This document shows, one piece after another, positions 5,885 to 63,110 of a stretch of DNA of 64,000 bases. The position numbers were made by a program, and so were the translations under genes. Origin of the DNA: Escherichia coli (GTDB lineage Bacteria > Pseudomonadota > Gammaproteobacteria > Enterobacterales > Enterobacteriaceae); NCBI RefSeq assembly GCF_009931435.1, contig NZ_CP043414.1. One strand, written 5' to 3'. The notes beneath the pieces are model-generated. The model had not been told where the DNA came from, searched no databases, and was given only the letters and a program-made list of their open reading frames with translations. The first letter of the stretch is position 1, and each line of letters starts with the position of its first letter.

Positions 5885-5894
5885 TGCATAAAAT

Positions 5895-5925: not shown

Positions 5926-5939
5926 TAATAGTTAAATGA

Positions 5940-6224: not shown

Positions 6225-6225
6225 T

Positions 6226-6558
6226 TTATACCTCACCTTTGAGCAGTTTCGTCAACTTCTTTAGTTGAGCTTTTTCCGTATCTGTCAGACTGTCTTTGGC
6301 ATTCTTCGGATAGGCCATAATCAAATAAATAATCTCTTCCGTCGCCAGAAAGTAAATTATTCTGACACTACCACTTTTTCCCTGTGAACCCGCAGCCATT
6401 CGGACTTTACGCAATCCACCAGTCTGCTGAATGAGATCACCTTTATCGGGAGTTCCGATGAGTTCTTTTTGCAATTCCTTTAATTCATCATCGGTTGCAA
6501 TCTGCTTGATCTGACGCGTAAACATTGGCGTCTCTATAAATATTATCGCCTTGCCCAT
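6226..6558 (-). CDS. Type II toxin, RelE/ParE superfamily (HigB-like)
   Basis: 110 aa from ATG 6556-6558 preceded by a GGGAGGGG Shine-Dalgarno; motif ...GGLRKVRMAAGSQGKSGSVRIIYF... typical of HigB/Gp49-type toxins; toxin-first gene order as in higBA. Confidence 0.65.
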   Translation of the reverse strand: MGKAIIFIETPMFTRQIKQIATDDELKELQKELIGTPDKGDLIQQTGGLRKVRMAAGSQGKSGSVRIIYFLATEEIIYLIMAYPKNAKDSLTDTEKAQLKKLTKLLKGEV

Positions 6559-6649
6559 TACCCCTCCCTGGCAGGTACATTGTACACCAAAATGGAGTAC
6601 TAAGTACACTTTTGAATCAGTAATATCACTCAACATCTTATAAAGATGA

Positions 6650-7882: not shown

Positions 7883-7902
7883 ATCTCCCTCCGTATCTCT
7901 CA

Positions 7903-9285: not shown

Positions 9286-9333
9286 GGTGTACCTCGTTAA
9301 TACTGTGCCGCCCGCAGGATGACGGGCGGACAA

Positions 9334-10302: not shown

Positions 10303-10407
10303 TAAGGCTCCTGTAAAATCGTTCGAAGCAGGGAAAATAACGCATGAGGCTACCTTGTATCCATTGCTTCTGGCAACATTAAGTCTCAAATTTTCAAAGG
10401 GTGGAAG

Positions 10408-11052
10408 ATGGCTCGCACAAAACTGAAATTCCGGCTGCATCGGGCAGTGATTGTCCTGTTCTGTCTTGCCTTGTTAGTGGCGCTGATGCAGGGGGCATCA
10501 TGGTTTAGTCAAAACCACCAGCGACAGCGTAATCCACAGCTGGAAGAACTGGCCCGCACCCTGGCGCGGCAGGTAACGCTGAACGTTGCGCCGCTGATGC
10601 GCACCGACTCGCCGGATGAAAAACGTATTCAGGCGATCCTCGATCAGTTAACGGATGAAAGCCGCATCCTCGACGCGGGCGTGTATGACGAACAAGGCGA
10701 TCTTATCGCCCGTTCTGGCGAAAGCGTCGAAGTGCGTGACCGGCTGGCGCTCGACGGTAAAAAAGCGGGCGGCTATTTTAACCAGCAGATTGTCGAACCC
10801 ATTGCAGGGAAAAATGGTCCGCTTGGCTATCTGCGCCTGACGCTCGACACCCATACGCTCGCCACCGAAGCTCAACAGGTGGATAACACCACTAACATTT
10901 TACGCCTGATGTTGTTGCTCTCGCTGGCAATCGGCGTGGTGCTGACCCGCACGCTGCTACAGGGTAAACGCACCCGCTGGCAGCAATCCCCCTTCCTGTT
11001 AACCGCCAGCAAACCGGTGCCGGAAGAGGAAGAAAGCGAGAAAAAAGAGTGA
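10408..11052 (+). CDS. ytjB: YtjB (Smp) membrane protein
   Basis: 214-aa ORF MARTKLKFRLHRAVIVLFCLALLVAL... with an N-terminal transmembrane segment; conserved position between serB and lplA. Confidence 0.85.
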   Translation: MARTKLKFRLHRAVIVLFCLALLVALMQGASWFSQNHQRQRNPQLEELARTLARQVTLNVAPLMRTDSPDEKRIQAILDQLTDESRILDAGVYDEQGDLIARSGESVEVRDRLALDGKKAGGYFNQQIVEPIAGKNGPLGYLRLTLDTHTLATEAQQVDNTTNILRLMLLLSLAIGVVLTRTLLQGKRTRWQQSPFLLTASKPVPEEEESEKKE

Positions 11053-11079
11053 CCCATTACTACAAGAAAGGAAATCGTT

Positions 11080-12096
11080 ATGTCCACATTACGCCTGCTC
11101 ATCTCTGACTCTTACGATCCGTGGTTTAACCTTGCGGTGGAAGAGTGTATTTTTCGCCAGATGCCCGCCACGCAGCGCGTTCTGTTTCTCTGGCGCAATG
11201 CTGACACCGTGGTGATTGGTCGCGCGCAGAACCCGTGGAAAGAGTGTAATACCCGGCGGATGGAAGAAGATAACGTTCGCCTGGCGCGGCGCAGTAGCGG
11301 TGGCGGCGCGGTGTTCCACGATCTCGGCAATACCTGTTTTACCTTCATGGCTGGCAAGCCGGAATACGATAAAACGATCTCCACCTCGATTGTGCTCAAT
11401 GCACTGAACGCGCTCGGTGTCAGCGCCGAAGCGTCCGGACGTAACGATTTGGTGGTGAAAACCGCCGAAGGCGACCGTAAAGTCTCAGGCTCGGCCTATC
11501 GCGAAACCAAAGATCGTGGCTTCCATCACGGCACCTTGCTACTCAATGCCGACCTTAGCCGCCTGGCAAACTATCTCAACCCGGATAAAAAGAAACTGGC
11601 GGCGAAAGGCATTACGTCGGTACGTTCCCGCGTGACCAATCTGACCGAATTGCTGCCGGGAATTACCCATGAGCAGGTTTGCGAAGCCATAACCGAGGCC
11701 TTTTTCGCCCATTATGGCGAGCGTGTAGAAGCGGAAATTATCTCCCCGGACAAAACGCCGGACTTGCCGAACTTCGCCGAAACCTTTGCCCGCCAGAGTA
11801 GCTGGGAATGGAATTTCGGACAGGCTCCAGCGTTCTCGCATCTGCTGGATGAACGCTTTACCTGGGGCGGCGTAGAACTGCATTTCGACGTCGAAAAAGG
11901 CCATATCACCCGCGCCCAGGTGTTTACCGATAGCCTCAACCCCGCACCTCTGGAAGCTCTCGCCGGACGACTGCAAGGCTGCCTGTACCGCGCTGACATG
12001 CTGCAACAAGAGTGTGAAGCGCTGTTGGTTGACTTCCCTGAACAGGAAAAAGAGCTACGGGAGTTGTCGACGTGGATAGCGGGAGCGGTACGGTAA
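11080..12096 (+). CDS. lplA: Lipoate-protein ligase A
   Basis: 338-aa [31 protein letters not shown]... matches LplA as recalled. Confidence 0.95.
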
Positions 12097-48286: not shown

Positions 48287-48442
48287 CGTCCCAAATATAA
48301 CCACTCAGTTATTTACCTTACTTTACGCGCGCGTAACTCTGGCAACATCACTGCAGGATAGCGGTCAATTTACCTCCTCAAACGCAACGCAAACCTAGAA
48401 CGGCTTCGGCCAACTATTAATCAATACATGCCAGGTTTTACT

Positions 48443-50593
48443 ATGGATACTAAAAAGATATTCAAGCACATACCCTGGGTGATTCTTGGAATCATCGGTG
48501 CATTCTGCCTCGCGGTAGTTGCATTACGTCGGGGGGAGCACGTCAGCGCCCTGTGGATCGTGGTCGCCTCTGTGTCGGTGTATCTGGTGGCTTATCGCTA
48601 CTACAGTCTGTACATCGCCCAGAAGGTGATGAAACTCGACCCCACGCGCGCGACGCCTGCGGTTATTAACAATGACGGTCTGAACTATGTTCCGACCAAC
48701 CGTTACGTGTTGTTTGGTCACCACTTCGCCGCTATCGCCGGTGCGGGTCCGCTGGTTGGTCCGGTTCTCGCCGCGCAGATGGGTTACCTGCCTGGCACAC
48801 TGTGGCTGCTGGCGGGGGTAGTGCTGGCCGGTGCGGTACAGGACTTTATGGTGCTGTTTATCTCTTCTCGCCGTAACGGCGCATCTCTCGGTGAGATGAT
48901 CAAAGAAGAGATGGGGCCAGTACCGGGGACTATCGCGCTGTTTGGCTGTTTCTTAATCATGATCATCATCCTCGCCGTTCTGGCGCTGATTGTGGTTAAA
49001 GCCCTGGCCGAAAGTCCGTGGGGGGTCTTCACCGTTTGCTCAACCGTACCGATTGCGCTGTTCATGGGTATCTACATGCGCTTTATCCGTCCGGGGCGTG
49101 TAGGTGAAGTCTCTGTTATTGGTATCGTGCTGCTGGTTGCCTCTATCTACTTCGGTGGCGTGATTGCTCACGATCCGTACTGGGGTCCGGCACTGACCTT
49201 TAAAGACACCACAATTACCTTCGCACTGATTGGCTATGCGTTTGTTTCCGCACTGCTGCCGGTGTGGCTGATCCTCGCACCGCGCGACTATCTGGCAACC
49301 TTCCTGAAAATCGGCGTTATCGTCGGCCTGGCGCTGGGTATCGTGGTGCTGAACCCGGAACTGAAAATGCCTGCGATGACCCAGTACATTGACGGTACTG
49401 GCCCGTTGTGGAAAGGCGCTCTGTTCCCGTTCCTGTTCATCACCATCGCCTGTGGTGCGGTATCTGGCTTCCACGCGCTGATCTCTTCCGGTACAACGCC
49501 GAAATTGCTGGCTAACGAAACCGACGCGCGTTTCATTGGCTACGGCGCAATGCTGATGGAGTCCTTCGTGGCGATTATGGCGCTGGTTGCTGCGTCCATC
49601 ATCGAACCGGGTCTTTACTTCGCGATGAATACCCCGCCTGCGGGCCTTGGCATCACCATGCCTAACCTGCATGAAATGGGTGGCGAGAACGCGCCGATCA
49701 TCATGGCGCAGCTGAAAGACGTTACCGCACACGCGGCAGCGACTGTCAGCTCCTGGGGCTTCGTGATTTCGCCAGAGCAGATCCTGCAAACCGCGAAAGA
49801 CATTGGTGAGCCTTCTGTCCTGAACCGTGCAGGTGGTGCGCCGACGCTGGCGGTAGGTATCGCTCACGTGTTCCACAAAGTGCTGCCGATGGCTGACATG
49901 GGCTTCTGGTATCACTTCGGTATTCTGTTCGAAGCCCTGTTCATCCTGACCGCGCTGGATGCGGGTACCCGTTCTGGCCGCTTTATGCTGCAAGACCTGC
50001 TGGGTAACTTCATCCCGTTCCTGAAAAAAACCGACTCTCTGGTTGCCGGCATCATCGGTACTGCGGGCTGTGTGGGTCTGTGGGGCTACCTGCTGTATCA
50101 GGGCGTGGTCGATCCGCTGGGCGGCGTTAAGAGCCTGTGGCCGCTGTTCGGTATCTCCAACCAGATGCTGGCAGCCGTAGCGCTGGTACTGGGCACCGTT
50201 GTGCTGATTAAGATGAAGCGCACCCAATACATCTGGGTGACTGTTGTTCCGGCTGTATGGCTGCTTATCTGCACCACCTGGGCGCTGGGCCTGAAACTGT
50301 TCAGCACCAACCCGCAGATGGAAGGCTTCTTCTACATGGCAAGCCAGTACAAAGAGAAGATTGCTAACGGTACTGACCTGACGGCACAGCAGATTGCCAA
50401 CATGAACCACATCGTTGTGAACAACTACACCAACGCGGGTCTGAGTATTCTGTTCCTGATTGTGGTGTACAGCATCATCTTCTACGGTTTCAAAACCTGG
50501 CTGAAGGTGCGTAACAGCGACAAACGTACTGACAAAGAAACTCCGTACGTTCCAATCCCGGAAGGCGGCGTGAAGATCTCTTCGCACCACTAA
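48443..50593 (+). CDS. btsT: Pyruvate/H+ symporter BtsT (YjiY), CstA family
   Basis: Start placed at MDTKKIFKHIPWVILGIIGAF... (716 aa). Confidence 0.9.
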   Translation: MDTKKIFKHIPWVILGIIGAFCLAVVALRRGEHVSALWIVVASVSVYLVAYRYYSLYIAQKVMKLDPTRATPAVINNDGLNYVPTNRYVLFGHHFAAIAGAGPLVGPVLAAQMGYLPGTLWLLAGVVLAGAVQDFMVLFISSRRNGASLGEMIKEEMGPVPGTIALFGCFLIMIIILAVLALIVVKALAESPWGVFTVCSTVPIALFMGIYMRFIRPGRVGEVSVIGIVLLVASIYFGGVIAHDPYWGPALTFKDTTITFALIGYAFVSALLPVWLILAPRDYLATFLKIGVIVGLALGIVVLNPELKMPAMTQYIDGTGPLWKGALFPFLFITIACGAVSGFHALISSGTTPKLLANETDARFIGYGAMLMESFVAIMALVAASIIEPGLYFAMNTPPAGLGITMPNLHEMGGENAPIIMAQLKDVTAHAAATVSSWGFVISPEQILQTAKDIGEPSVLNRAGGAPTLAVGIAHVFHKVLPMADMGFWYHFGILFEALFILTALDAGTRSGRFMLQDLLGNFIPFLKKTDSLVAGIIGTAGCVGLWGYLLYQGVVDPLGGVKSLWPLFGISNQMLAAVALVLGTVVLIKMKRTQYIWVTVVPAVWLLICTTWALGLKLFSTNPQMEGFFYMASQYKEKIANGTDLTAQQIANMNHIVVNNYTNAGLSILFLIVVYSIIFYGFKTWLKVRNSDKRTDKETPYVPIPEGGVKISSHH

Positions 50594-50642
50594 CCGTGTT
50601 TAGCCCCGCTTCGGCGGGGCTTTGTTCTTATCAGAGTGAACT

Positions 50643-50846
50643 ATGTTTGGTAACTTAGGACAGGCAAAAAAATATCTCGGCCAGGCGGCGAAGATGTTGA
50701 TTGGCATTCCAGACTACGACAACTACGTCGAGCATATGAAGACCAACCATCCCGACAAGCCGTACATGAGCTATGAAGAATTCTTCCGCGAACGCCAGAA
50801 CGCGCGCTACGGCGGCGATGGTAAAGGCGGTATGCGCTGTTGTTAA
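50643..50846 (+). CDS. yjiX: YjiX (DUF466 family small protein)
   Basis: 67 aa [67 protein letters not shown]. Confidence 0.8.
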
Positions 50847-50856
50847 TGGAGAGAGC

Positions 50857-51813
50857 ATGAACCCGATTGCAGTTACCCTACTCACCGGTTTTTTAGGCGC
50901 AGGCAAAACCACCCTGCTGCGCCATATTCTTAATGAACAGCACGGCTACAAGATTGCCGTGATTGAAAACGAATTCGGCGAAGTCTCCGTTGATGATCAA
51001 CTGATTGGCGACCGCGCCACGCAGATCAAAACGCTGACCAACGGCTGCATCTGTTGTTCGCGCTCCAACGAGCTGGAGGACGCGCTACTCGACCTGCTGG
51101 ATAATCTCGACAAGGGCAATATTCAGTTCGATCGTCTGGTCATTGAATGCACCGGCATGGCCGATCCCGGCCCGATTATTCAGACCTTTTTCTCCCATGA
51201 GATTTTATGCCAGCGTTACCTGCTGGACGGCGTGATTGCGCTGGTGGATGCGGTACATGCCGATGAGCAGATGAACCAGTTCACCATCGCCCAGTCACAG
51301 GTTGGCTACGCCGACCGCATTCTGCTGACCAAAACCGACGTCGCAGGCGAAGCAGAAAAACTGCGTGAACGCCTGGCACGCATCAACGCCCGCGCACCGG
51401 TCTACACCGTCACCCACGGCGACATCGATCTGGGCCTGCTGTTCAACACCAACGGTTTTATGCTGGAAGAAAACGTCGTCAGCACCAAACCGCGTTTCCA
51501 CTTTATCGCGGATAAACAAAACGATATTTCGTCGATTGTGGTAGAACTGGATTACCCGGTAGATATCAGCGAAGTTTCCCGCGTGATGGAAAACCTGCTG
51601 CTGGAGTCGGCGGATAAACTGCTGCGTTACAAAGGGATGCTATGGATTGACGGCGAACCAAATCGCCTGCTGTTCCAGGGCGTCCAGCGCCTCTACAGCG
51701 CCGACTGGGACCGCCCGTGGGGCGATGAAAAACCGCATAGCACGATGGTGTTTATCGGGATTCAGCTGCCGGAGGAAGAGATTCGGGCTGCGTTTGCGGG
51801 GTTGAGGAAGTAA
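50857..51813 (+). CDS. yjiA: COG0523/CobW-family metal-binding GTPase YjiA
   Basis: Start placed at MNPIAVTLLTGFLGAGKTTLLRHIL... (318 aa); GCICCS metal-binding motif. Confidence 0.9.
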   Translation: MNPIAVTLLTGFLGAGKTTLLRHILNEQHGYKIAVIENEFGEVSVDDQLIGDRATQIKTLTNGCICCSRSNELEDALLDLLDNLDKGNIQFDRLVIECTGMADPGPIIQTFFSHEILCQRYLLDGVIALVDAVHADEQMNQFTIAQSQVGYADRILLTKTDVAGEAEKLRERLARINARAPVYTVTHGDIDLGLLFNTNGFMLEENVVSTKPRFHFIADKQNDISSIVVELDYPVDISEVSRVMENLLLESADKLLRYKGMLWIDGEPNRLLFQGVQRLYSADWDRPWGDEKPHSTMVFIGIQLPEEEIRAAFAGLRK

Positions 51814-51824
51814 AATTTCACATT

Positions 51825-51867
51825 TTTCTTAAGCCGGAAGATATATATACCCCACCGGCTTAAGAAA
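51825..51867. repeat. Inverted repeat at the convergent yjiA / accessory-operon junction
   Basis: TTTCTTAAGCCGG ... CCGGCTTAAGAAA (about 13-bp arms, 17-nt AT-rich spacer); no flanking U-tract on either strand. Confidence 0.4.
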
Positions 51868-51878
51868 GTGCAATTCTC

Positions 51879-52628
51879 TTATGAAACATCACGAAATACA
51901 CAGGTAAGTTCTTTAGGACTTGCTTTCCATATATGGTCAAAGCCACTCGACAGCATGACTTCTATTTTTCCTTCCGGACTTTCAATTAGTAAATAGCGAT
52001 CATGGCAGTTTGTATATTTGGGATTTGTAGTGATTTGCACACTCCATTCAGGATGGATACAATGAACAAAATTACTATTTATTTTACTTCCGTTTTGGAC
52101 TGCAGCGACACCTACTGCGATTTCTGAAAATTCAATAACAAGCTCTTTTCTAGGTAGTACGGAATGAAATAAGCTGCATGTATTCTCCCAATTCTGTGCA
52201 AAGTAATTATCGCATATAATTACTTTTTTTGCATTGCAACATAGCATTTCCAGATACTTTTTTAAATATATTCTATTATCTGTAGGGCTTAATGTAACGG
52301 TAACTTGATTATTAACCATACCTTTTTTATAATGTACAAAGGGAAGTGATAAATTATCATTCTCAGTAAGGATTATTTTCAACAACGATTTAGATGCTAA
52401 AGTAACAAGATCATCATCACTTTCAGGCTGACTTGCTAACATAGATAAATATTGTCGATATTCTAACTCCGGCATCTTCAATCCTAAATTTCTTGCCTCA
52501 ATCCATTGCCTTTTGTTAGTTAAATAAGGTAGTACTAGTTTTTTATGTAATCTCTTCACCTTATTCTTATCATCCATATTTTCATATGCAACTAATAAAG
52601 ATGTATCAAGAACCATTTGATAAGACAT
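51879..52628 (-). CDS. Hypothetical protein, no recognisable domain; third gene of the accessory operon (gene C)
   Basis: 249-aa ORF; ATG 4 nt after the ATPase stop with a GAGGT Shine-Dalgarno; AT-rich coding sequence. Confidence 0.6.
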   Translation of the reverse strand: MSYQMVLDTSLLVAYENMDDKNKVKRLHKKLVLPYLTNKRQWIEARNLGLKMPELEYRQYLSMLASQPESDDDLVTLASKSLLKIILTENDNLSLPFVHYKKGMVNNQVTVTLSPTDNRIYLKKYLEMLCCNAKKVIICDNYFAQNWENTCSLFHSVLPRKELVIEFSEIAVGVAAVQNGSKINSNFVHCIHPEWSVQITTNPKYTNCHDRYLLIESPEGKIEVMLSSGFDHIWKASPKELTCVFRDVS

Positions 52629-52632
52629 TTCT

Positions 52633-53682
52633 TTACCTCATCTTCATCAAATCATCTAAGGTTGCATCAAAAAAACCTAAAGGGAATCCCGTAACATTCT
52701 CTTGCAGATCGGTAAATTTCCCACCTTCATTAACTCTCATCGAGATAAAATCTTTATCCACATCAGGTTTATAATGTACAGAAATATCCTCAGAAGTTAT
52801 AACATCTTCATAAACCAAATACGCAAGTTTATTGATTAAATGTTCACAATGCGTTTCTACAATAATCTGGATACCCTTACTTGCTACAAATGCTAAAAAA
52901 ATTGCCAAATGAGACTGCGCTTTCGGATGCAATTGAATTTCGGGATTTTCTAGCAAAATAAGATCGCCTTTTTTTGCCATCAAACAAATAATCAAAACCT
53001 TTGCAATATAACTCATCCCAGCCCCAAGATTAAGAGGAGAAACATTTCCTTCAAGCTCTTTTAAGGTAAAAGCGACCTTAATCTGGTCACCAACTTTTTC
53101 AGTAACTAATTCAGACGTCGTTCCTGTAATCAGTTTCAACCAATAAGATAATTGATATGCAAGTGTTGTAGATTCGTGAACTTTCACCAGATATTCAGGT
53201 ACTGGCAAATGTTTCATTTTATCAAATGTTGAAAACAAGAATTCTCCTGCAACACCTACTCGACGTTCTGCGGTGGGCACAAATTCTTGTGCCCCCAAGC
53301 GGTTGGCATTCAGATAGAGCAACTCAGGTTCACTACCAGGCACTCTTGGCTCGTATTGATATCCCAGACGACTATCAATTTCGATATTTTCTGAGTTGAG
53401 CGTTAACGAATGAGAATTTTTTTCTGTATCCTGGACTGTTATAACAATAGATTTTGCGTTATTTTTTTTATTTCTAATAACAGGAAAATCAGCTAGAAAT
53501 CGGATAACTTCTTCCATACTATACTGATTAACAGAAGCGCTATTTTTAATTAGTAACATCAATGCCTGAATAACGCTGGATTTACCAGAAGAGTTAGTTC
53601 CAGTTAAAATGGTCAGTGGTGATAACACCAGACTTGTTGAGCCTAAACTTTTAAATCCTTGAATGTTAATATTTGTAAGCAT
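52633..53682 (-). CDS. ABC-type/AAA_21-like ATPase, second gene of the accessory operon (gene B)
   Basis: 349 aa; N-terminal MLTNINIQGFKSLGS... with Walker A GTNSSGKSS; C-terminal Walker B and H-loop (DLILLENPEIQLHP...IIVETHCEHL); start overlaps the upstream gene by 17 nt. Confidence 0.75.
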   Translation of the reverse strand: MLTNINIQGFKSLGSTSLVLSPLTILTGTNSSGKSSVIQALMLLIKNSASVNQYSMEEVIRFLADFPVIRNKKNNAKSIVITVQDTEKNSHSLTLNSENIEIDSRLGYQYEPRVPGSEPELLYLNANRLGAQEFVPTAERRVGVAGEFLFSTFDKMKHLPVPEYLVKVHESTTLAYQLSYWLKLITGTTSELVTEKVGDQIKVAFTLKELEGNVSPLNLGAGMSYIAKVLIICLMAKKGDLILLENPEIQLHPKAQSHLAIFLAFVASKGIQIIVETHCEHLINKLAYLVYEDVITSEDISVHYKPDVDKDFISMRVNEGGKFTDLQENVTGFPLGFFDATLDDLMKMR

Positions 53683-54796
53683 TTTTAATCCTTTCCATTA
53701 TTTCCTTCGCAAAATCAAAACGCATATTTACATATTGTGTTGTATCAATTGCACCAGAAAAAATACCAATCTCATCAAAATTATACTTGTATTGTTCAAT
53801 AAGCTGTTTTAATTCAATATTTTTTGATAAAAATTCAAAACTTATCTGACTGAATACCATAACTAACACTTCGAATAATCCCATATTCACTGGTCGCCTT
53901 TTAGCACCTGATTTTGTTGAAAATCTAAATGCTTCTGAACCCAACGCTTTATAGACATTAGTCATACCAGTTATACAAGCATCTTCAACTTCTTCCAGTA
54001 ACTCATCATCAGCTTTTGTATTAATGAATTTCATCGCAGATGCTAAAAAAGCATCAATATCAGACCTAAATTCAACACCTGGCATTTGATTTGTTACAAG
54101 CAAATAAAATCCTACGAACCGCAAAACCAGATATCTGTCTCGCATACGCTCAGATTTTACGCCATTACCTGTTGCAAGCCTGAAAGACTCGTGTTCAGCG
54201 AGATCCTTAATTAACTTTGTGGCCTTGCCTTGATAAAGAGCATGCCGCATTTCCTGTTTATTTAGATTAATACCACTTCGATTTACACGCTCAAAAATAT
54301 TAAATTTCACATATTCAGGTGTTGGGGGTTGAATCACATAAGAATGTAACTGGCAATCTTCAAGCTTTGCTTGTAATAATGGAGGAATATCAGAAAATTT
54401 TTTTCCTCTCAAGTCAGGCAACATAGATAAATCAGTTAAAGAAAATTCATTGTTAACATAGCGTTTCAATGCAGATATTCGTTGTTTGCCATCAATGATT
54501 TGCCTGACACCATTTTCATCCTCAAAAAGATAAATTAATGGAATAGGAATCCCCATTAAAATAGATTCAATTAATTCTGACTGGTGTTTTCTATCCCAGA
54601 CAAGTTTACGCTGAAAATCTGGAGCAAGAACCAGTTGCCCACGAGCTTCGCGACGGAGTAATTCGAAAACACTGGATTGCTCTTTTGCAATTCGAACCTC
54701 AGTATCTGTCCCCATTTGATGCGGATGAGATGTTAACTCAAGCTCTTCTTGATCTTCGAGTTCAATGCTGTCGTTTTCTACATCCGCATTACTCAT
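53666..54796 (-). CDS. DUF262 (ParB/sulfiredoxin-like NTPase, GmrS-type) domain protein, first gene of the accessory operon (gene A)
   Basis: 376 aa; acidic N-terminal tail then DUF262 motifs PDFQRKLVWDRKHQSELIESILMGIPIPLIYLF...IIDGKQRISAL and FNIFERVNRSGINLNKQEM; no DUF1524/HNH motif found. Confidence 0.75.
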   Translation of the reverse strand: MSNADVENDSIELEDQEELELTSHPHQMGTDTEVRIAKEQSSVFELLRREARGQLVLAPDFQRKLVWDRKHQSELIESILMGIPIPLIYLFEDENGVRQIIDGKQRISALKRYVNNEFSLTDLSMLPDLRGKKFSDIPPLLQAKLEDCQLHSYVIQPPTPEYVKFNIFERVNRSGINLNKQEMRHALYQGKATKLIKDLAEHESFRLATGNGVKSERMRDRYLVLRFVGFYLLVTNQMPGVEFRSDIDAFLASAMKFINTKADDELLEEVEDACITGMTNVYKALGSEAFRFSTKSGAKRRPVNMGLFEVLVMVFSQISFEFLSKNIELKQLIEQYKYNFDEIGIFSGAIDTTQYVNMRFDFAKEIMERIKNAYKY

Positions 54797-55036
54797 GGTA
54801 AAATTACCTTTAAAAATTTATCGAATTATTTATTCATAAAAATAGGGCGCTGAATCAAAATTTCAGCCCCTTAATCAACATGAATTATACCCTAACTTCC
54901 TTCTTGACTGCGACCTTCACTGCACCATTATGCGAGTTATCTCCAGAACATAATGCTCTCATACCGCCCTAAGTCATAGCCAGGCTATTGATTTTATGTA
55001 CAATCAGAATCGTCCTGATAAAAGCGAGAATACCCC

Positions 55037-57469
55037 ATGGCGGAACTGAACCTAAGTAACCTGACGGAAGCAGACATCATTACCAAATGCGTTATGCCAG
55101 CCATTCTCAATGCAGGCTGGGACAACACAACGCAAATCAGACAGGAGGTCAAACTCCGGGACGGTAAAGTCATCGTACGTGGTAAAGTTGCGGCACGCAG
55201 AACGGTAAAATCTGCTGACATCGTGCTGTATCACAAACCAGGCATTCCCTTAGCCGTGATTGAAGCAAAAGCCAACAAACATGAAATTGGCAAAGGGATG
55301 CAACAGGGCATTGAATATGCGCGCCTGCTGGACGTTCCTTTTGTTTTTGCCACCAACGGGGATGGCTTTATCTTCCGCGATGCCACCGCAGCCGAAGGTG
55401 AATGCCTTGAAAAGCAAATAACGCTGGATGACTTCCCCTCCCCCGCTGAACTCTGGCAAAAATTCTGCCTCTGGAAAGGATACACACAAGCTCAGCTTCC
55501 GGTGATTACTCAGGACTATTACGACGATGGCAGCGGTAAATCGCCACGTTATTACCAGCTTCAGGCAATCAACAAAACCATTGAAGCCGTCTCCAACGGG
55601 CAAAACCGCGTTCTGTTGGTCATGGCGACCGGAACAGGGAAAACCTATACCGCATTCCAGATCATCTGGCGCCTGTGGAAATCAAAAAATAAAAAACGCA
55701 TTCTGTTCCTTGCCGATCGCAACATTCTGGTCGACCAAACCAAAAATAATGATTTCCAGCCATTTGGTACGGCAATGACCAAAGTCAGCGGACGCACCAT
55801 TGATCCCGCTTATGAAATTCACCTCGCGCTCTATCAGGCTATAACTGGCCCGGAGGAAGACCAAAAAGCGTTTAAACAAGTCGCACCAGATTTCTTCGAT
55901 CTGATAGTCATCGACGAATGCCATCGCGGCAGCGCATCCGAAGACAGCGCCTGGCGAGAGATCCTTGATTATTTCAGTTCCGCCACCCAAATTGGCTTAA
56001 CCGCCACGCCAAAAGAGACGCATGAAGTCTCCAGCACGGATTACTTCGGCGATCCGGTTTACGTCTACTCGCTAAAAGAAGGGATCGAAGACGGCTTCCT
56101 CGCCCCTTATAAAGTTGTCCGTGTTGATATTGATGTTGATCTGCAAGGCTGGCGCCCAACCAAAGGGCAAACTGACTTAAACGGCGAAGTGATCGACGAT
56201 CGTATCTATAACCAGAAAGATTTCGATCGCACGATGGTAATCGACGAACGCACAGAACTGGTTGCCAGAACCATTACCGACTACCTCAAGCGCACCAATC
56301 CGATGGATAAAACCATCGTCTTCTGTAACGACATCGATCATGCAGAACGTATGCGCCGCGCCCTGGTTAATCTCAACTCGGAGCAGGTGAAAAAGAACGA
56401 CAAATACGTCATGAAAATCACCGGCGATGATGAAATTGGCAAAGCTCAGTTGGATAACTTCATCAACCCGAAAAAACCGTACCCGGTTATCGCGACCACT
56501 TCAGAGCTGATGACCACCGGTGTGGATGCTAAAACCTGCAAACTGGTAGTACTGGACCAGAACATCCAGTCGATGACCAAATTCAAGCAGATTATCGGTC
56601 GTGGTACACGCATCGACGAACGTTACGGCAAACTCTGGTTTACCATCCTCGACTTTAAAAAAGCCACCGAACTGTTTGCCGATGAGCGTTTCGATGGCAT
56701 TCCCGAAAAAGTCATGGATACCACACCAGAGGATATCACCGATCCAGAATCTGATTTTGAAGAGAAACTCGAAGAAATCAGCGAACATGACGACGAACAG
56801 GTAACGGGCGTTGATGAACCGCCTGCGCCACCATACCAGGTTACCGATACCGATGATGTCGGCCCACTTCCGGAAGAAGACGAGAAGAAAATCCGCAAGT
56901 TTCACGTCAACGGTGTCGCGGTGGGCGTTATTGCGCAGCGTGTTCAGTATTACGATGCCGACGGTAAACTGGTTACCGAATCTTTTAAAGATTACACCCG
57001 CAAAACACTGCTCAAAGAATATGCCTCGCTGGATGACTTTACCCGCAAGTGGCAGGACGCCGATCGCAAAGAAGCGATCATTCACGAGCTGGAGCAACAG
57101 GGGATCATCTGGGAAGTACTGGCAGAAGAAGTCGGTAAAGATCTCGACCCGTTCGACATGCTTTGCCACGTAGTGTATGGTCAGCCGCCGTTAACCCGCA
57201 AAGAGCGCGCCGAGAACGTGCGCAAGCGGAACTACTTCACAAAATACTCTGAAGCAGCGCAAGCCGTGCTCGATAATCTGCTGGATAAATACGCCGATGC
57301 GGGCGTACAGGAGATCGAAAGTATTCAGGTGCTGAAACTTAAACCATTCGACAGCATGGGCACTTTACCGGAGATTATTAAAACCGGATTTGGCGACCGT
57401 AACGGGTATAATCAGGCGCTCAGCGAGCTGGAAAACGAAATCTACCAATTACCGCCCCGCTCTGCTTAA
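55037..57469 (+). CDS. hsdR: Type I restriction enzyme R subunit HsdR (short, Type IB-like form)
   Basis: 810 aa; N-terminal PD-(D/E)xK nuclease region and SF2 helicase motifs [26 protein letters not shown]. Confidence 0.9.
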
Positions 57470-57483
57470 CAACTCTCTTTTGC

Positions 57484-57522
57484 GCCTTCTGCAACCATCA
57501 TGTTGCAGAAGGCCTTGTTTTT
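57484..57522 (+). terminator. Rho-independent terminator between hsdR and hsdM
   Basis: Perfect 12-bp stem GCCTTCTGCAAC / GTTGCAGAAGGC with a 6-nt loop, followed by CTTGTTTTTC. Confidence 0.55.
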
Positions 57523-57535
57523 CATGGAATACAAC

Positions 57536-59005
57536 ATGTCTATCAGCTCAGTAATCAAATCATTACAAGATATTATGCGCAAAGATGCCGGTGTGGATGG
57601 CGATGCGCAGCGTCTCGGTCAGCTCTCCTGGCTGCTGTTTTTGAAAATCTTCGATGCCCAGGAAGAGGCGCTGGAACTGGAGCAGGATAACTATCAATAT
57701 CCGATCCCACAGCGTTATTTGTGGCGCAGTTGGGCCGCCAACGCGCAGGGCATTACCGGTGATTCCCTGCTGGAATTCGTTAATGATGATCTGTTCCCGG
57801 CGTTGAAAAACCTCACTGCGCCTATCGATAAAAACCCACGCGGCTACGTGGTGAAGCAGGCGTTCAGCGATGCCTATAACTATATGAAAAACGGTACGCT
57901 ACTGCGTCAGGTGATCAACAAGCTGAACGAAATTGACTTTACCAGCGCCAGCGAACGCCATCTGTTTGGTGATATTTACGAACAGATCCTTAAAGATCTG
58001 CAATCTGCGGGCAATGCTGGCGAATTCTATACTCCACGCGCCGTCACTCGCTTTATGGTGGATCGCGTTGATCCGAAACTCGGCGAATCCATTATGGACC
58101 CGGCCTGCGGTACGGGCGGTTTTCTTGCCTGCGCATTTGATCATGTAAAGAACAAATACGTGAAGAGCGTCGCCGATCATCAGACTCTGCAACAACAGAT
58201 CCACGGTGTCGAGAAAAAACAGCTTCCGCACCTGCTGGCGACCACCAATATGCTGCTGCACGGCATTGAAGTACCGGTACAAATTCGTCACGACAACACC
58301 CTGAATAAACCGCTTTCCTCCTGGGATGAGCAACTGGATGTGATTGTTACCAACCCGCCATTTGGTGGCACGGAAGAAGACGGTATTGAGAAGAACTTTC
58401 CGGCAGAGATGCAAACCCGCGAAACGGCGGATCTGTTCCTGCAACTGATTGTGGAAGTACTGGCGAAAAACGGTCGCGCGGCGGTGGTATTGCCGGATGG
58501 CACACTATTTGGCGAAGGCGTTAAAACCAAAATCAAAAAACTGCTTACCGAAGAGTGCAACCTGCATACCATCGTGCGTTTACCGAATGGGGTGTTTAAC
58601 CCCTATACCGGCATTAAAACCAACCTGTTGTTCTTTACCAAAGGTCAGCCAACCAAAGAGATTTGGTTCTATGAGCATCCGTATCCGGCGGGCGTGAAAA
58701 ATTACAGTAAAACCAAGCCGATGAAGTTTGAAGAGTTTCAGGCGGAGATCGACTGGTGGGGGAACGAGGCCGATGGTTTTGCCAGCCGCGTCGAGAATGA
58801 GCAGGCGTGGAAAGTCAGCATTGATGACGTGATTGCGCGTAACTTCAATCTGGATATTAAAAACCCACATCAGGCGGAAACCGTTAGCCATGATCCGGAC
58901 GAGCTGTTAGCGCAGTATGCAAAGCAGCAGGCGGAGATCCAGACGCTGCGTAATCAACTGCGCGATATTCTTGGCGCTGCGCTGTCTGGCAAGGAGGTTA
59001 ACTGA
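57536..59005 (+). CDS. hsdM: Type I restriction-modification N6-adenine DNA methyltransferase HsdM
   Basis: SAM motif DPACGTGGFL and catalytic NPPFGG; start placed at MSISSVIKSLQDI... after the hairpin (the track ORF starts at 57500, inside the hairpin). Confidence 0.9.
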   Translation: MSISSVIKSLQDIMRKDAGVDGDAQRLGQLSWLLFLKIFDAQEEALELEQDNYQYPIPQRYLWRSWAANAQGITGDSLLEFVNDDLFPALKNLTAPIDKNPRGYVVKQAFSDAYNYMKNGTLLRQVINKLNEIDFTSASERHLFGDIYEQILKDLQSAGNAGEFYTPRAVTRFMVDRVDPKLGESIMDPACGTGGFLACAFDHVKNKYVKSVADHQTLQQQIHGVEKKQLPHLLATTNMLLHGIEVPVQIRHDNTLNKPLSSWDEQLDVIVTNPPFGGTEEDGIEKNFPAEMQTRETADLFLQLIVEVLAKNGRAAVVLPDGTLFGEGVKTKIKKLLTEECNLHTIVRLPNGVFNPYTGIKTNLLFFTKGQPTKEIWFYEHPYPAGVKNYSKTKPMKFEEFQAEIDWWGNEADGFASRVENEQAWKVSIDDVIARNFNLDIKNPHQAETVSHDPDELLAQYAKQQAEIQTLRNQLRDILGAALSGKEVN

Positions 59006-60753
59006 TGAGTGTGGAAAAGCTGATCGTTGATCATATGGAAACCTGGACCTCGGCGTTGCAAACCCGTTCCACCGCCGGGCGCGGCAGTTCCGGAAAAATT
59101 GATTTATATGGCATTAAGAAATTACGTGAGCTGATTCTGGAACTGGCTGTGCGCGGTAAACTGGTGCCGCAGGATCCGAATGATGAACCGGCGTCGGAGC
59201 TGCTGAAGCGTAATGAAGAACGGAAAAAAGAATTAGCGCGCAATAATGGTATGAAAACCACAGCAAGCACTAATATCCATGGAAATGAATATTATATCGA
59301 TACCCCCGAAAAGTGGTCATGGATAAGACTTGGTAATTTAGCTAAATTCATCGATTACCGAGGGAAAACACCACATAAAAAAGAAAATGGTATAAGGCTT
59401 ATAACAGCAAAAAATATCAGAAAGGGCTGTATTGATCTCAATCCAGAAGAATTCATATCTGAAGAAGATTACATATCATGGATGACAAGAGGCTTTCCTA
59501 AATGTGGTGATATTTTATTCACAACTGAAGCACCACTGGGGAATGCAGCGATTATTGATTTAGACGGAAAGTTCGCTCTTGCTCAACGTTCTATCTGTTT
59601 TCAATGGCATACTCCAGAGATAAGCCCTTTTATGCTTATTCAAATCCTGGCGATCCCCTTCCAGTCACAACTAAGTGACAAATCTACAGGCATGACCGCA
59701 ACAGGAATAAAAGCGTCTAAGTTAAAAGAGATCCCTGTTATTTTACCACCTTACCAAGAACAAATACGTATTGTATCCAAAGTACAGGAGTTCATGTCCC
59801 TATGTGACCAACTGGAACAGCAATCCCTGACCACTCTGGACGCACATCAGCAACTGGTTGAAACCCTGTTGGGAACGCTTACAGACAGCCAAAACGCCGA
59901 GGAACTGGCTGAAAACTGGGCGCGTATTAGCGAGCATTTCGACACCCTATTTACCACCGAAGCCAGCGTGGATGCGTTAAAACAGACCATTCTGCAACTG
60001 GCCGTAATGGGCAAACTTGTGCCGCATGATCCGAATGACGAACCAGCCTCTGAACTGCTCAAACGAATTGCGCAGGAAAAAGCTCAACTGGTGAAAGAAG
60101 GAAAAATAAAAAAACAAAAACCGTTGCCGCCGATTAGCGATGAGGAAAAACCTTTTGAACTGCCGGAAGGGTGGGAATGGATTAGACTAGGAAATATTGG
60201 TGAAGTTAAAGGGGGCGGAACCCCAAGTAAAAACAATCCTGATTTTTGGAAAGGTAATATTCCATGGGTTTCACCAAAGGATATGAAGGTTAATTACATC
60301 TCCAAAAGTCAACTAAATATTTCAAAAGAGGCTGTATTGGAGAGTTCAGTACATCTAATTCCTGAAAATAGTCTTATTTTTGTTGTCCGAGGCATGATTT
60401 TAGCCCATACATTCCCCGTAGCAATAACAAAAAAAGAAGTCACTATTAATCAAGATATGAAAGCCATATCAACTAATCAATTAAATACTGATTTTTTAAT
60501 TTACTTACTTAAAGCAAACGAGACTCGAGTAATATGCTTAGTTGACCGCTCCTCTCATGGCACATGTAAACTTGTTTCAGATAAACTTTTCAATTTGGTT
60601 TTACCGTTGCCTCCATTAGAAGAACAATTTCGTATTACAGAACGAATAAATATGCTATTAGCTTATTGTGATAGATTGAAAAATTATATAAATCTAAAAA
60701 AACAAACCCAACTGCACCTTGCAGATGCACTCACTGACGCGGCGATAAACTAA
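59005..60753 (+). CDS. hsdS: Type I restriction-modification specificity subunit HsdS
   Basis: 582 aa; ATG overlaps the hsdM stop (TGATG); two target-recognition domains, each preceded by a conserved repeat (LAVRGKLVPQDPNDEPASELLKR / LAVMGKLVPHDPNDEPASELLKR). Confidence 0.9.
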   Translation: MSVEKLIVDHMETWTSALQTRSTAGRGSSGKIDLYGIKKLRELILELAVRGKLVPQDPNDEPASELLKRNEERKKELARNNGMKTTASTNIHGNEYYIDTPEKWSWIRLGNLAKFIDYRGKTPHKKENGIRLITAKNIRKGCIDLNPEEFISEEDYISWMTRGFPKCGDILFTTEAPLGNAAIIDLDGKFALAQRSICFQWHTPEISPFMLIQILAIPFQSQLSDKSTGMTATGIKASKLKEIPVILPPYQEQIRIVSKVQEFMSLCDQLEQQSLTTLDAHQQLVETLLGTLTDSQNAEELAENWARISEHFDTLFTTEASVDALKQTILQLAVMGKLVPHDPNDEPASELLKRIAQEKAQLVKEGKIKKQKPLPPISDEEKPFELPEGWEWIRLGNIGEVKGGGTPSKNNPDFWKGNIPWVSPKDMKVNYISKSQLNISKEAVLESSVHLIPENSLIFVVRGMILAHTFPVAITKKEVTINQDMKAISTNQLNTDFLIYLLKANETRVICLVDRSSHGTCKLVSDKLFNLVLPLPPLEEQFRITERINMLLAYCDRLKNYINLKKQTQLHLADALTDAAIN

Positions 60754-60914: not shown

Positions 60915-61000
60915 ATGTGCGCCAACACACCCGCACCGCTCATCACAATCCCTATTTCACGAGAATAGTAATCATGACTGACACGCATTCTATTGCACAA
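60915..61000 (-). ncRNA. symR: Expected position of the SymR antisense sRNA (boundaries not determinable from sequence)
   Basis: Placed only by analogy: in K-12 SymR is encoded antisense to the symE 5' UTR and start codon; no independent sequence evidence. Confidence 0.25.
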
Positions 61001-61315
61001 CCGTTCGAAGCAGAAGTCTCCCCGGCAAATAACCGTCAATTAACCGTGAGTTATGCGAGCCGCTACCCGGATTACAGCCGTATTCCCGCCATCACTCTGA
61101 AAGGTCAGTGGCTGGAAACCGCCGGTTTTACCACCGGCACGGCGGTAGATGTCAAAGTGATGGAAGGCTGTATTGTCCTCACCGCCCAACCACCCGCCGC
61201 CGAGGAGAGCGAACTGATGCAGTCACTGCGCCAGGTGTGCAAACTGTCAGCGCGTAAACAGAAGCAGGTGCAGGAGTTTATTGGGGTGATTGCCGGTAAA
61301 CAGAAAGTCGCCTGA
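60974..61315 (+). CDS. symE: SOS-induced toxin-like protein SymE (AbrB/SpoVT fold)
   Basis: 113 aa [48 protein letters not shown]...; track ORF starts at an upstream Met (60917). Confidence 0.85.
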
Positions 61316-61361: not shown

Positions 61362-63110
61362 TTATACCAACGCGCTCTCCATCTGTTTTTCAAATGCCTG
61401 ACGGATTAATCCCATAATGTAAGGAAGTTGTGCGAGGTCGCTGAAACCAATTTCTACATCGCCATTGCCCCAGCGCCCAACATTTGTCACATCTTTGGCA
61501 ATACCTTTCGGATCGACCAGTTCATGAAACTGCATATTAAGCGACAATCGCAGTCGGCTTTTTTGCGGCACAACATCAACAAAATTCGTTTCCGCTTTAA
61601 ACGCAATATAGAGCTTCAATACTTCCTGCGTGATCCCTGCGTCCAGGCGCAAAACTTCATCGCTAAGATGATCGAATAACACCCGGCTATGCGAACCATC
61701 AGCAAGAAAAGGATAATCACTCAGGCTGTAACTGGTTTTGTTTTCCGGCTGCCCCCGATAAACAGCTAAAACCTCTTCAGGAAGAGAAGGCGCTTGCCAG
61801 ACCTGAACCGCGAGATCGGCCAGACGATCGGCTCGGGCGTGAATGGCAGCTTCATCCCATTTTTCGCACTGTCCAAGACCGATATTCAAATAAAGCGGGC
61901 TATGCTTAAAGCCGTCTTCAATATCGCGTTTTTCCGCGAAAGGTCTGTCACTGTAGCGGGAGTTATAGCGCGTTAAAGTGAGATTCCCCAACGTATGCAA
62001 CAATTCTTTATGAATACGCTGCCAGTCGCTTCCCAGCTCTTCGCGCCATTTAGCCGACAAATTTTCGTTCTGCGGCATAATGTGCTCAATCGTAAACTCT
62101 TCCACGCGCTCTCTGCGTTTATTGTTTTCCAGTCGTCGTAACCAGTAACTGCGACTGCGGAAGTTATAGAGATCGCGAACTTTTAATTCCCGTTTAAATT
62201 CATCATCGTTGGGGAAACGACGATATGAAGGTAGATTCAGAAAATGTACCTGAATACTTTCCAGATAATTTTCTTTATTAATAACTTTATAAAAAGTGGC
62301 AAACGTCTTGTTAAGAGAATTTGTTGGAATCGCACATACTGCACGGCGGAAAACATAAGATTCAATTAAACGAATTATGCTCAGGAAATCTTCACGAGAC
62401 AAAACGCCATTTTTATAGTCATGATAAAGCGCCAGTAAGAAAGGATACGCCACATCGACTTTTAACTCGCGCAAATCCTGAAAAGCCGTAGCAAGCGATT
62501 TGTCACTTTCTTTTCCCAATGCCATTGCACAGTAATACTCCGCGTAGATGTGAATATCTTCAACCAGCCGATCTACGCCTTTTTCAGCAACACTCTGGCT
62601 ACGGGCATGGAGTTTAAAAGCCTCATAGACTTCATCTGTCCGAGGGATCTCCCCCGTTTTTACCGTCAGATAATGACGCATAAAACTGTCAAAATATTCG
62701 CTGTAACCTTGCTGACCAAAGGCGACTTCCATGGGTCGCCAGTGATCTTCATACAACCGGGTTTGATGCTCTGGTTCGAGACCCATCAGAATAAAATTGC
62801 GCACCAGATCGGCCTGACTTAACGCCTTACCGGTGGAGTTCATACTTTCAAAAATCAGTTGCGGATTATCCTGACCACGATTAAGCGCCACATCGACAAT
62901 TAATAACTTTGCTAACCCACGACATAAGGGGATCAAGTCATCACCGAGTTTGGCAATTTGTTCATCAAAGAAAGTAAAGTTTTCCATTATTCGATGGGAA
63001 TAGTTTTCTGGCATTGGTCTTTGTTTTATTAACGCCAGCAAACTGTCTTTATCAGTCTCGGTAAGCAGTAATTTAAATCCTTTCTCGCCGGACTCATAAG
63101 GATTGAGCAA
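61362..63110 (-). CDS. GmrSD-family (DUF262 C-terminal part + DUF1524 His-Me finger) protein lacking the N-terminal DGQQR core; possibly the yjiT-equivalent locus
   Basis: 582-aa ORF with a TTG start right after an in-frame stop; DUF262 distal motif IFESMNSTGKALSQADLVRNFILMG; DUF1524 motif EHIMPQNENLSAKW...LHTLGNLTLTRYNSRYSD; only 64 bp separate it from yjiS. Confidence 0.7.
   Translation of the reverse strand: MLNPYESGEKGFKLLLTETDKDSLLALIKQRPMPENYSHRIMENFTFFDEQIAKLGDDLIPLCRGLAKLLIVDVALNRGQDNPQLIFESMNSTGKALSQADLVRNFILMGLEPEHQTRLYEDHWRPMEVAFGQQGYSEYFDSFMRHYLTVKTGEIPRTDEVYEAFKLHARSQSVAEKGVDRLVEDIHIYAEYYCAMALGKESDKSLATAFQDLRELKVDVAYPFLLALYHDYKNGVLSREDFLSIIRLIESYVFRRAVCAIPTNSLNKTFATFYKVINKENYLESIQVHFLNLPSYRRFPNDDEFKRELKVRDLYNFRSRSYWLRRLENNKRRERVEEFTIEHIMPQNENLSAKWREELGSDWQRIHKELLHTLGNLTLTRYNSRYSDRPFAEKRDIEDGFKHSPLYLNIGLGQCEKWDEAAIHARADRLADLAVQVWQAPSLPEEVLAVYRGQPENKTSYSLSDYPFLADGSHSRVLFDHLSDEVLRLDAGITQEVLKLYIAFKAETNFVDVVPQKSRLRLSLNMQFHELVDPKGIAKDVTNVGRWGNGDVEIGFSDLAQLPYIMGLIRQAFEKQMESALV

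Follow-up and report, generated by a model that had tools for sequence, protein, structure and literature searches.

A horizontally acquired nsnABC operon in the mrr slot of Escherichia coli is predicted to encode an intact Type I Menshen anti-phage system

Menshen is an anti-phage system described by Millman et al. 2022, and a Type I form whose NsnC carries inPIN and PB-PLD1 domains was described by Li et al. 2025 (PMC12065111). In the E. coli pan-genome, Menshen is already on record (PMC10121019). As reported, the S. silvestris Menshen system protects against T2, T4, T6, and Fado, while an E. coli operon (EcMenshen) and SsMenshen protect against T4 in a preprint (bioRxiv 10.1101/2025.07.10.664194). 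Additionally, Menshen defense is lost upon deletion or mutation of the DUF262 gene. An RNase model has been proposed for most Menshen effectors. Their activity and substrate are putative, since in vitro no DNA was cleaved by the S. silvestris complex after purification.

In this study, we analyzed a window of 64,000 nucleotides of E. coli DNA (assembly GCF_009931435.1, contig NZ_CP043414.1), in which three co-directional genes lie between yjiA and an EcoAI-family hsdR (Table 1). The coordinates in the ORF list agree exactly with the tightly packed minus-strand operon proposed in the initial annotation: nsnA and nsnB overlap by 17 nt (53666–53682), and a gap of 4 nt (52629–52632) separates nsnB from nsnC. 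The ribosome-binding site proposed for each gene is also present, as a purine-rich Shine-Dalgarno-like run before each ATG (AAAGG for nsnA, AAGGA for nsnB, and GAGG for nsnC). The GC content is 0.351 for nsnA, 0.357 for nsnB, and 0.324 for nsnC. In the flanks, yjiA and btsT reach 0.545–0.557 and hsdR and hsdM 0.50, and the block is thus more AT-rich than its flanks (32–36% vs 50–56% GC), as first noted. At 99% identity, one flank corresponds to E. coli btsT-yjiX-yjiA and the other to EcoAI-family hsdRMS, the latter being the adjoining Type I restriction-modification (R-M) system that had been pointed out. In K-12 MG1655, the space between yjiA and hsdR is taken by mrr in the same convergent/divergent geometry, which confirms the location in the mrr slot, and in NCTC9104, a 550-aa DUF262 protein occupies this slot.

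Table 1. Coordinates of the nsnABC genes and adjacent features in the window
Feature	Position	Strand	Description
nsnA (gene A)	53666–54796	-	376 aa; predicted sensor
nsnB (gene B)	52633–53682	-	349 aa; ABC-type ATPase, predicted transducer, C-terminal DUF3696-like tail
nsnC (gene C)	51879–52628	-	249 aa; predicted effector
Perfect 12-bp inverted repeat TTCTTAAGCCGG / CCGGCTTAAGAA	51826–51866		between the convergent nsnC and yjiA stops
Divergent nsnA-hsdR intergenic region	54797–55036		presumed nsnABC promoter region

Based on searches of PADLOC-DB v2, the three proteins match the Menshen profiles over their full length: NsnA with an E-value of 2e-110 (368 bits; profile positions 21–383 of 385), NsnB with 1.5e-78 (positions 1–342 of 345), and NsnC with 2.2e-71 (positions 1–241 of 242). 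Moreover, their domain architecture fits the published Menshen description point by point, with the same three genes in the same order, nsnA-nsnB-nsnC, and no architectural difference from Type I Menshen with an inPIN and PB-PLD1 NsnC (PMC12065111). On these grounds, we consider it very likely that the locus is an intact Type I Menshen anti-phage system, with the mechanism taken from the family model. Judged by sequence, the trio is an already named and already catalogued system, and the operon is almost certainly an anti-phage defense operon. The initial annotation had presented it as a candidate novel system and had listed assignment to a characterized system, Menshen-type ones included, beforehand as an outcome that counts against this claim; the PADLOC matches are such an assignment. 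Its reading as an acquired defense operon in the mrr slot therefore holds, while the novelty does not. Public records name NsnA only as a "DUF262 domain-containing protein", NsnB as an "AAA family ATPase", and NsnC as a "hypothetical protein". The Pfam check proposed for the three proteins returned PF03235 in NsnA, AAA_15/AAA_21 in NsnB, and nothing in NsnC.

Exact-protein look-ups showed that proteins identical to the trio are present in the same slot in hundreds of E. coli assemblies, including one complete chromosome. When the block was searched as DNA against 5,426 complete RefSeq genomes of E. coli, neither the near nor the distant mode gave a match; extreme rarity of the block, considered from this null search, was dropped in view of the identical proteins. 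The nearest relatives of this allele outside Escherichia are at most 80% identical. The A-B-C order is kept in all six E. coli neighborhoods (6/6), in the Salmonella, Citrobacter, Moritella, Klebsiella plasmid, and Campylobacter plasmid loci examined, and in a metagenome contig whose NsnC is just 29% identical. In Salmonella and Citrobacter, related trios occupy this yjiA/hsdR slot as well; those of Klebsiella and Campylobacter are plasmid-borne, and that of Moritella, which is embedded inside an hsdM-hsdS...hsdR operon, lies on a mobile element. Homologous trios recur in defense islands or beside R-M systems. The reported association of Menshen with Type I R-M systems (PMC12065111) is also seen here, and the published figure of 27.9% lumps these systems with BREX, type III R-M, and methylase genes.

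For NsnC, the N-terminal domain (residues ~1–104) is PIN-like without the conserved catalytic acidic quartet ("inPIN"), and the C-terminal domain (~105–249) is phospholipase-D-like ("PB-PLD1"). Sequence searches of solved structures gave nothing for NsnA and nothing credible for NsnC, and fold comparison was therefore used instead. The C-terminal domain shows the features of the PB-PLD1 class, namely, a PLD-like fold closest to MIT_C and NucT, an Asp after beta-2, and an HDR motif before beta-5. The same two domains, Asp, and HDR motif characterize NsnC of the inPIN and PB-PLD1 kind of Type I Menshen, and the protein falls into what Li et al. 2025 class as "Type I Menshen, PB-PLD1 effector". 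D140, H209-D210-R211, and E223 are invariant. Pfam and NCBIfam gave no match for NsnC, and the initial annotation recognized no motif in gene C; the invariant H209-D210-R211 and D140 in a PLD-like fold correct this view. The PLD-like effector chemistry is putative; the closest structural relative of the domain is MITD1 MIT_C, which is not a demonstrated nuclease, and the motif is H-x-R, in contrast to the canonical H-x-K(x4)D. In the experimentally validated S. silvestris Menshen, NsnC instead combines inPIN11 with a BECR-type RNase. No NsnC homologs were found in phage genomes.

Both NsnC folds, the PIN-like fold and that of the PLD-like putative nuclease, are common in toxins, the trio occurs beside toxin-antitoxin genes on plasmids, and abortive infection is compatible with the published Menshen model. 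These points could fit an addiction or toxin-antitoxin-like module that stabilizes the island, with NsnC as the toxin, NsnB as its inhibitor, and phage defense as an incidental effect. However, phage protection has been reported directly for two Menshen operons, Menshen loci are found in defense islands or by R-M systems rather than in plasmid maintenance regions, and the ORF list contains no antitoxin-like small gene. We therefore regard such a module as very unlikely.

For NsnA, residues 1–25 are disordered and are followed by a ParB-like DUF262 NTPase domain (~35–190) and an all-helical C-terminal half (~191–376, "ParBDB"). As in Type I Menshen NsnA, there is no extra N-terminal domain, which therefore places the system in Type I. 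The Pfam match is GmrSD_N/DUF262 (PF03235, 4.4e-24), the model contains no nuclease fold, and NCBIfam gave no match; the description of gene A as a DUF262 protein without a nuclease domain is thus supported. The motifs are FQRKLVW at 61–67 (QRxxxW), DGKQR at 102–106 (DGxQR), and FERVN at 168–172 (FxxxN). Q62, W67, D102, G103, R106, F168, and N172 are invariant among 46 homologs, in which R63 and Q105 reach at least 90% conservation. In the fold comparison, the best solved-structure matches of the NsnA model are BrxU and SspE. GmrSD, BrxU, and SspE have in common with NsnA the DUF262 NTPase domain, its QRxxxW, DGxQR, and FxxxN motifs, and a helical domain after it, and group members are found in the same kind of genomic slot, such as the DUF262 protein of NCTC9104. 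In contrast, they possess a DUF1524/HNH nuclease domain, whereas the present locus has a separate effector and an interposed ABC ATPase.

These similarities raise the question of a type IV restriction system of the PD-T4-2 or split GmrSD type, in which the DUF262 protein senses modified DNA, a separate nuclease cuts, and the ATPase is accessory. NsnA matches the PADLOC PD-T4-2_A profile over its full length (6.4e-32), as well as SspE and HEC-05/06 weakly, and Mrr, the K-12 occupant of the yjiA/hsdR slot, is itself a type IV enzyme. Furthermore, the E. coli system PD-T4-2 (Vassallo et al. 2022) has an NsnA-homologous DUF262 protein of similar length without DUF1524. However, the NsnA profile scores 368 bits against 109 bits for PD-T4-2_A, and the PD-T4-2 partner genes differ: no partner profile matches NsnB or NsnC, which are matched end to end by their own Menshen profiles. 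The GmrSD family is defined by DUF262 fused to DUF1524, and neither DUF1524 (Pfam) nor an HNH domain (Pfam and models) is present in NsnA, NsnB, or NsnC. Accordingly, a type IV system is very unlikely, and Type I Menshen remains our preferred assignment.

For NsnB, Pfam gives matches to AAA_15, AAA_21, and SMC_N, the NCBIfam matches are to ABC ATPases only and far below threshold, and the solved-structure sequence search returned only a weak OLD-family match. Across five homologs, down to 40% identity, the invariant elements are Walker A (G28..G33-K34-S35), R128 in place of the Q motif, the G220-A-G222 signature (GxG), Walker B E245-N246 (EN), H278/H281 (sensor His), and the FPxGFFD tail. These matches and motifs agree with the earlier identification of gene B as a Walker A/B ABC-type ATPase. 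DUF3696 is matched weakly in Pfam (E 2.2), and one Campylobacter homolog is annotated as a DUF3696 protein. The EN Walker B, the GxG signature, the R for Q, and the DUF3696 tail are the variant motifs published for Type I Menshen NsnB.

In PARIS (AriAB), Septu (PtuAB), Gabija (GajAB), and HEC-03, an OLD/AAA_15-type ABC ATPase is likewise coupled with a nuclease-like effector, which it is thought to hold or regulate, and the predicted NsnB tetramer resembles GajA. In contrast, they have no DUF262 sensor, their effectors are Toprim, HNH, or active PIN rather than inPIN plus PLD, and NsnB has no fused Toprim domain. Membership in PARIS, Septu, or Gabija was rejected: the AriA and GajA matches are partial, PtuA scores 17.8 bits against a cut-off of 500, and no AriB, PtuB, or GajB partner was matched among the three proteins. 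A two-gene ABC-ATPase/effector system of the PARIS, Septu, Gabija, or HEC-03 kind formed by nsnB and nsnC, with nsnA as an independent neighbor, is likewise very unlikely, since the partial NsnB matches that favor it (AriA 1.7e-27, HEC-03B 2.1e-26, also HEC-01A, Old, and GajA), together with the coupling of an ABC ATPase to a PIN protein in HEC-03 and the Septu- and PARIS-like predicted NsnB-NsnC architecture, have to be set against the restriction of these matches to two stretches (Walker A and signature/Walker B) while the NsnB profile covers the whole length, the nsnA/nsnB overlap, the presence of a DUF262 gene ahead of that for the ATPase at all homologous loci examined in Enterobacterales, Vibrionales-like marine taxa, and Campylobacter, and the dependence of Menshen defense on this gene in the literature.

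Under the Menshen assignment, the Li et al. 2025 family model, together with related DUF262 and ABC-ATPase defense systems, suggests a likely mechanism. NsnA, through its ParB-like DUF262 NTPase domain and helical DNA-binding half, would recognize incoming phage DNA, probably modified DNA such as that of T-even phages, and would signal to NsnB. The NsnB ABC ATPase, a predicted tetramer, may hold NsnC by its PIN-like N-terminal domain via the DUF3696 tails, and ATP binding or hydrolysis would release or activate NsnC. The PLD-like domain of NsnC (D140, H209-D210-R211, E216, and E223) could then cleave nucleic acid, either DNA or RNA, and thereby stop phage replication or kill the infected cell. 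Gene structure, family membership, domain folds, motif conservation, three-gene synteny, and horizontal acquisition are shown by the present analysis; in the scheme above, the trigger, the NsnB-NsnC complex, and the substrate are inferred, and the step from sensor to ATPase is pure inference, because the published AlphaFold models predicted no NsnA-NsnB contact (PMC12065111).

The pairing with R-M genes is kept in the yjiA/hsdR slot of Escherichia, Salmonella, and Citrobacter, and the Moritella trio lies within an R-M operon; for these reasons, the enterobacterial Menshen subfamily might be functionally coupled to the adjacent Type I R-M system, with NsnC acting on DNA rather than RNA. In such a coupling, which we consider unlikely, NsnA could read the feature, DNA modification or anti-restriction activity, by which phages evade EcoAI-type restriction.

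The finding is an ordinary one and opens no new question. Its main value is correct annotation, in that the mrr slot of this strain's immigration-control region carries Menshen, which adds to the recognized variability of this E. coli defense hotspot. Moreover, there is modest practical value in having a native E. coli Menshen with a PLD-like effector, because it can be challenged with coliphages in the host to which it belongs, and such a study could settle what NsnA senses, how NsnB is signaled, and what NsnC cleaves.

The Menshen genes form an AT-rich cassette of ~3.15 kb (51814–54962) in the variable yjiA/hsdR slot. Homology of the yjiA-side flank to other E. coli ends at 51813, and homology to EcoAI-type E. 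coli genomes begins at 54963. Based on these abrupt breakpoints at both flanks and the low GC content, the operon was acquired horizontally, as had been suggested. No integrase or transposase was found among the ORFs of 49–64 kb, and the search for flanking direct or inverted repeats gave just short, chance-level ones; cassette exchange by homologous recombination in the conserved flanks appears to be the likelier entry route.

Between 54797 and 54962, the nsnA-hsdR intergenic region is found only with the Menshen insert, because homology resumes only at the end of this part. An exact TATAAT without a good -35 element is present on the minus strand at 54889–54884. A consensus scan gave neither promoter-like nor terminator-like sites in excess of shuffles, and the nsnABC promoter is therefore only presumed to lie in this intergenic region. 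The fold of the nsnA leader hairpin is not significant (z -1.0). At the other end, the inverted repeat downstream of nsnC is insert-specific DNA, because flank homology stops before it. Its RNA fold has an energy of -24.8 kcal/mol (z -5.7) for the minus strand and -19.3 kcal/mol (z -5.75) for the plus strand, and none of 200 shuffles is equally stable (0/200). This repeat is probably a bidirectional terminator or a 3'-end stabilizer.

Based on profile searches, genes A, B, and C are nsnA, nsnB, and nsnC, and together they constitute an NsnABC Menshen anti-phage system. In PADLOC-DB, A matched NsnA (2e-110, profile positions 21-383 of 385), B matched NsnB (1.5e-78, 1-342 of 345), and C matched NsnC (2.2e-71, 1-241 of 242). 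The initial annotation had proposed a novel defense operon; these end-to-end matches instead assign it to a named system, the outcome which that annotation had itself set against its proposal. Its reading of A as a DUF262 protein and B as an ATPase was sound, as Pfam returned only GmrSD_N/DUF262 for A and AAA_15/AAA_21/SMC_N for B. A Pfam search of NsnC gave no domain match, and an NCBIfam search gave no model for A or C. This sparse coverage accounts for the generic names in public records ('DUF262 domain-containing protein', 'AAA family ATPase', and 'hypothetical protein', respectively) and for the earlier failure to place the trio. Membership was judged by comparing the proteins with the family description in Li et al. 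2025 (PMC12065111). B exactly matches the unusual motif set published there for NsnB: a Walker A GxxxxGKS, a Walker B with EN rather than DE, a GxG signature, and an Arg replacing the Q-motif Gln, together with a sensor His and a conserved C-terminal FPxGFFD tail. All of these motifs are invariant among homologs down to 40% identity. Collectively, the trio is an intact, conserved, and horizontally mobile module of a DUF262 NTPase, an ABC ATPase, and a PIN-like/phospholipase-D-like (PLD-like) protein.

The first validated Menshen was an operon of Solibacillus silvestris; the introduction of PMC12065111 credits it with protection against T2, T4, T6, and Fado. The same survey counted 1,997 Menshen systems, of which Gammaproteobacteria account for 33%, and noted that they are frequently linked to type I R-M. 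Menshen is already among the defense systems of the E. coli pan-genome (PMC10121019), and an E. coli operon was reported to be protective against T4 (bioRxiv 10.1101/2025.07.10.664194). The finding is thus real but already known, since Menshen has been named, validated, bioinformatically dissected, and catalogued in E. coli. As far as could be established, the residual novelty is only that the PLD-type effector and this allele seem not to have been individually characterized.

In view of the phage phenotypes reported for Menshen, an addiction module is not the primary reading of nsnABC. A two-gene PARIS/Septu/Gabija/HEC-03-type system made of B and C was rejected; matches to those families are only partial, and the gene for the DUF262 protein shows translational coupling to B and synteny in all loci examined. 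PD-T4-2 or a split GmrSD was also rejected, with A scoring 368 bits against the NsnA profile versus 109 bits against PD-T4-2_A, no DUF1524, and B and C matching only NsnB and NsnC.

An ORF scan reproduced the Menshen trio as three co-directional minus-strand genes at the positions first annotated, with a 17-nt overlap between nsnA and nsnB and a 4-nt gap between nsnB and nsnC. Purine-rich Shine-Dalgarno-like motifs lie 5' of each ATG (AAAGG for nsnA, AAGGA for nsnB, and GAGG for nsnC), in agreement with a ribosome-binding site for every gene. The block is also more AT-rich than its flanks, as had been noted, with 32-36% GC versus 54-56% for btsT and yjiA and ~50% for hsdR and hsdM. The convergent stops of nsnC and yjiA are parted by a strong hairpin (12-bp perfect stem, -24.8 kcal/mol, z -5.7), and the nsnABC promoter presumably lies within the 240-bp divergent nsnA-hsdR spacer. 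On the minus strand of the nsnA leader, an exact TATAAT (54889-54884) precedes a hairpin with a T-run that resembles a terminator (54867-54849); the stability of this hairpin does not exceed that of shuffles (z -1.0), and the arrangement may be due to chance.

Positions of the Menshen genes and neighboring features in the window
Feature	Position	Strand	Description
nsnA (A)	53666-54796	minus	376 aa, ORF scan
nsnB (B)	52633-53682	minus	349 aa, ORF scan
nsnC (C)	51879-52628	minus	249 aa, ORF scan
hsdR-hsdM-hsdS	55037-60753	plus	complete EcoAI/FtnUII-family type IB system
symE homolog	60917-61315	plus	SymE toxin/nucleoid-associated protein; directly after hsdS, as in K-12
GmrSD-like gene	61362-63110	minus	DUF262 remnant and HNH 'EHIMPQ' motif

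The family model (PMC12065111), combined with GmrSD, SspE, and BrxU biology, suggests a mechanism. NsnA would bind phage DNA and then activate NsnB; the reported phage phenotypes make modified T-even DNA a plausible ligand. A GajA-like tetramer is predicted for NsnB, with pairs of DUF3696 tails clamping the PIN-like N-terminal (inPIN) domain of NsnC. ATP binding or hydrolysis by NsnB may activate or release NsnC, and the putative PLD-like site of NsnC would cleave nucleic acid. AlphaFold 3 runs predicted no NsnA-NsnB contact (PMC12065111), and the purified S. silvestris complex cut none of the DNA substrates tested. The nearest structural neighbor of the NsnC effector domain is MIT_C, not a proven enzyme, and the NsnC motif is H-x-R-x4-E, versus the canonical HKD.

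The neighborhood analysis proposed in the initial annotation showed one gene order throughout: a DUF262 gene and an AAA_15/21 ATPase gene precede the nsnC homolog in every neighborhood examined. In E. coli, the trio always lies between yjiA and an EcoAI-family hsdR (6/6 distinct places, the complete chromosome OZ038830.1 among them), with three or more different backbones upstream, and Salmonella enterica and Citrobacter carry it in the same slot. Moritella (2118-12090) offers an example of one defense system embedded within another: the trio lies between hsdM-hsdS and a split type I R-M hsdR (HSDR_N and SWI2_SNF2 ORFs), on an element that encodes AlpA, a DUF5906 primase, and a resolvase as well. 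In a trio on a metagenome contig, NsnC identity falls to only 29% and NsnA is longer (472 aa). On a conjugative IncFIB/HI1B plasmid of Klebsiella pneumoniae (NZ_LR890179.1, 42821-59549; NsnC 51% identical), the trio adjoins an ABC-three-component system, a retron St85-family reverse transcriptase, and a PtuA ATPase in a dense defense island, and a Campylobacter plasmid also carries it. A functional link between the trio and the neighboring type IB R-M is possible, but these stand-alone plasmid copies weaken the case for it. No NsnC homolog was found in phage genomes.

Proteins identical to the E. coli trio are found on some 240-280 contigs, and the assembly collection has 628 indexed blocks with NsnC. 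The Menshen block (51879-54796) had no DNA match, in near or distant modes, in 5,426 complete RefSeq E. coli genomes, in contrast to the identical proteins encoded by hundreds of E. coli contigs, one of them the complete chromosome OZ038830.1. This absence may reflect either a low-frequency allele missed by sampling or the composition of the collection. Among E. coli, Salmonella, and Citrobacter, the DUF262 domain of NsnA retains ~90% protein identity and the helical C-terminal half only 58-60% (58% against Salmonella), so the half presumed to recognize DNA seems to change much faster than the NTPase core does.

In DNA searches, essentially all complete E. coli genomes matched 48400-51813 (btsT-yjiX-yjiA) at 99% identity, and 984 of the 5,426 matched 54963-59100 at 99% identity with an EcoAI/FtnUII-family (type IB) hsdR-hsdM-hsdS, confirming the adjoining type I R-M. 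In K-12 MG1655, mrr occupies the yjiA/hsdR slot, as the initial annotation had it, with the same geometry, convergent with yjiA and divergent from hsdR. The slot is variable between strains; NCTC9104, with the same EcoAI-type hsd, holds a single 550-aa DUF262 protein, and in another strain the slot has BrnTA, with a different type I system after it. Relative to Salmonella, DNA identity is 85-90% for core genes and 84-87% for hsdR and hsdM, versus only 73-79% for the nsn genes. No boundary repeats or recombinase genes were found in the searched flanks of the block, so we infer that exchange likely proceeds by homologous recombination in the conserved flanks.

While hsdR and hsdM are 99% identical to those of many E. 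coli, hsdS (GC 0.41) aligns with other strains only along the conserved segments at its center and ends; its target-recognition domains differ from those of the compared genomes, and thus so does its specificity. As listed, the symE ORF begins with a GTG, and its true start is likely well downstream. Between symE and yjiS, where K-12 has mcrBC, the GmrSD-like gene matches PADLOC 'Orf5' (5.7e-174) only over profile positions 104-542 of 543. Given this late match start and the only 63 bp to yjiS, the gene seems to have lost its 5' end, and with it the DGxQR portion of DUF262; it is probably a pseudogene. In NCTC9104, the GmrSD-like gene is present in a frameshifted form.
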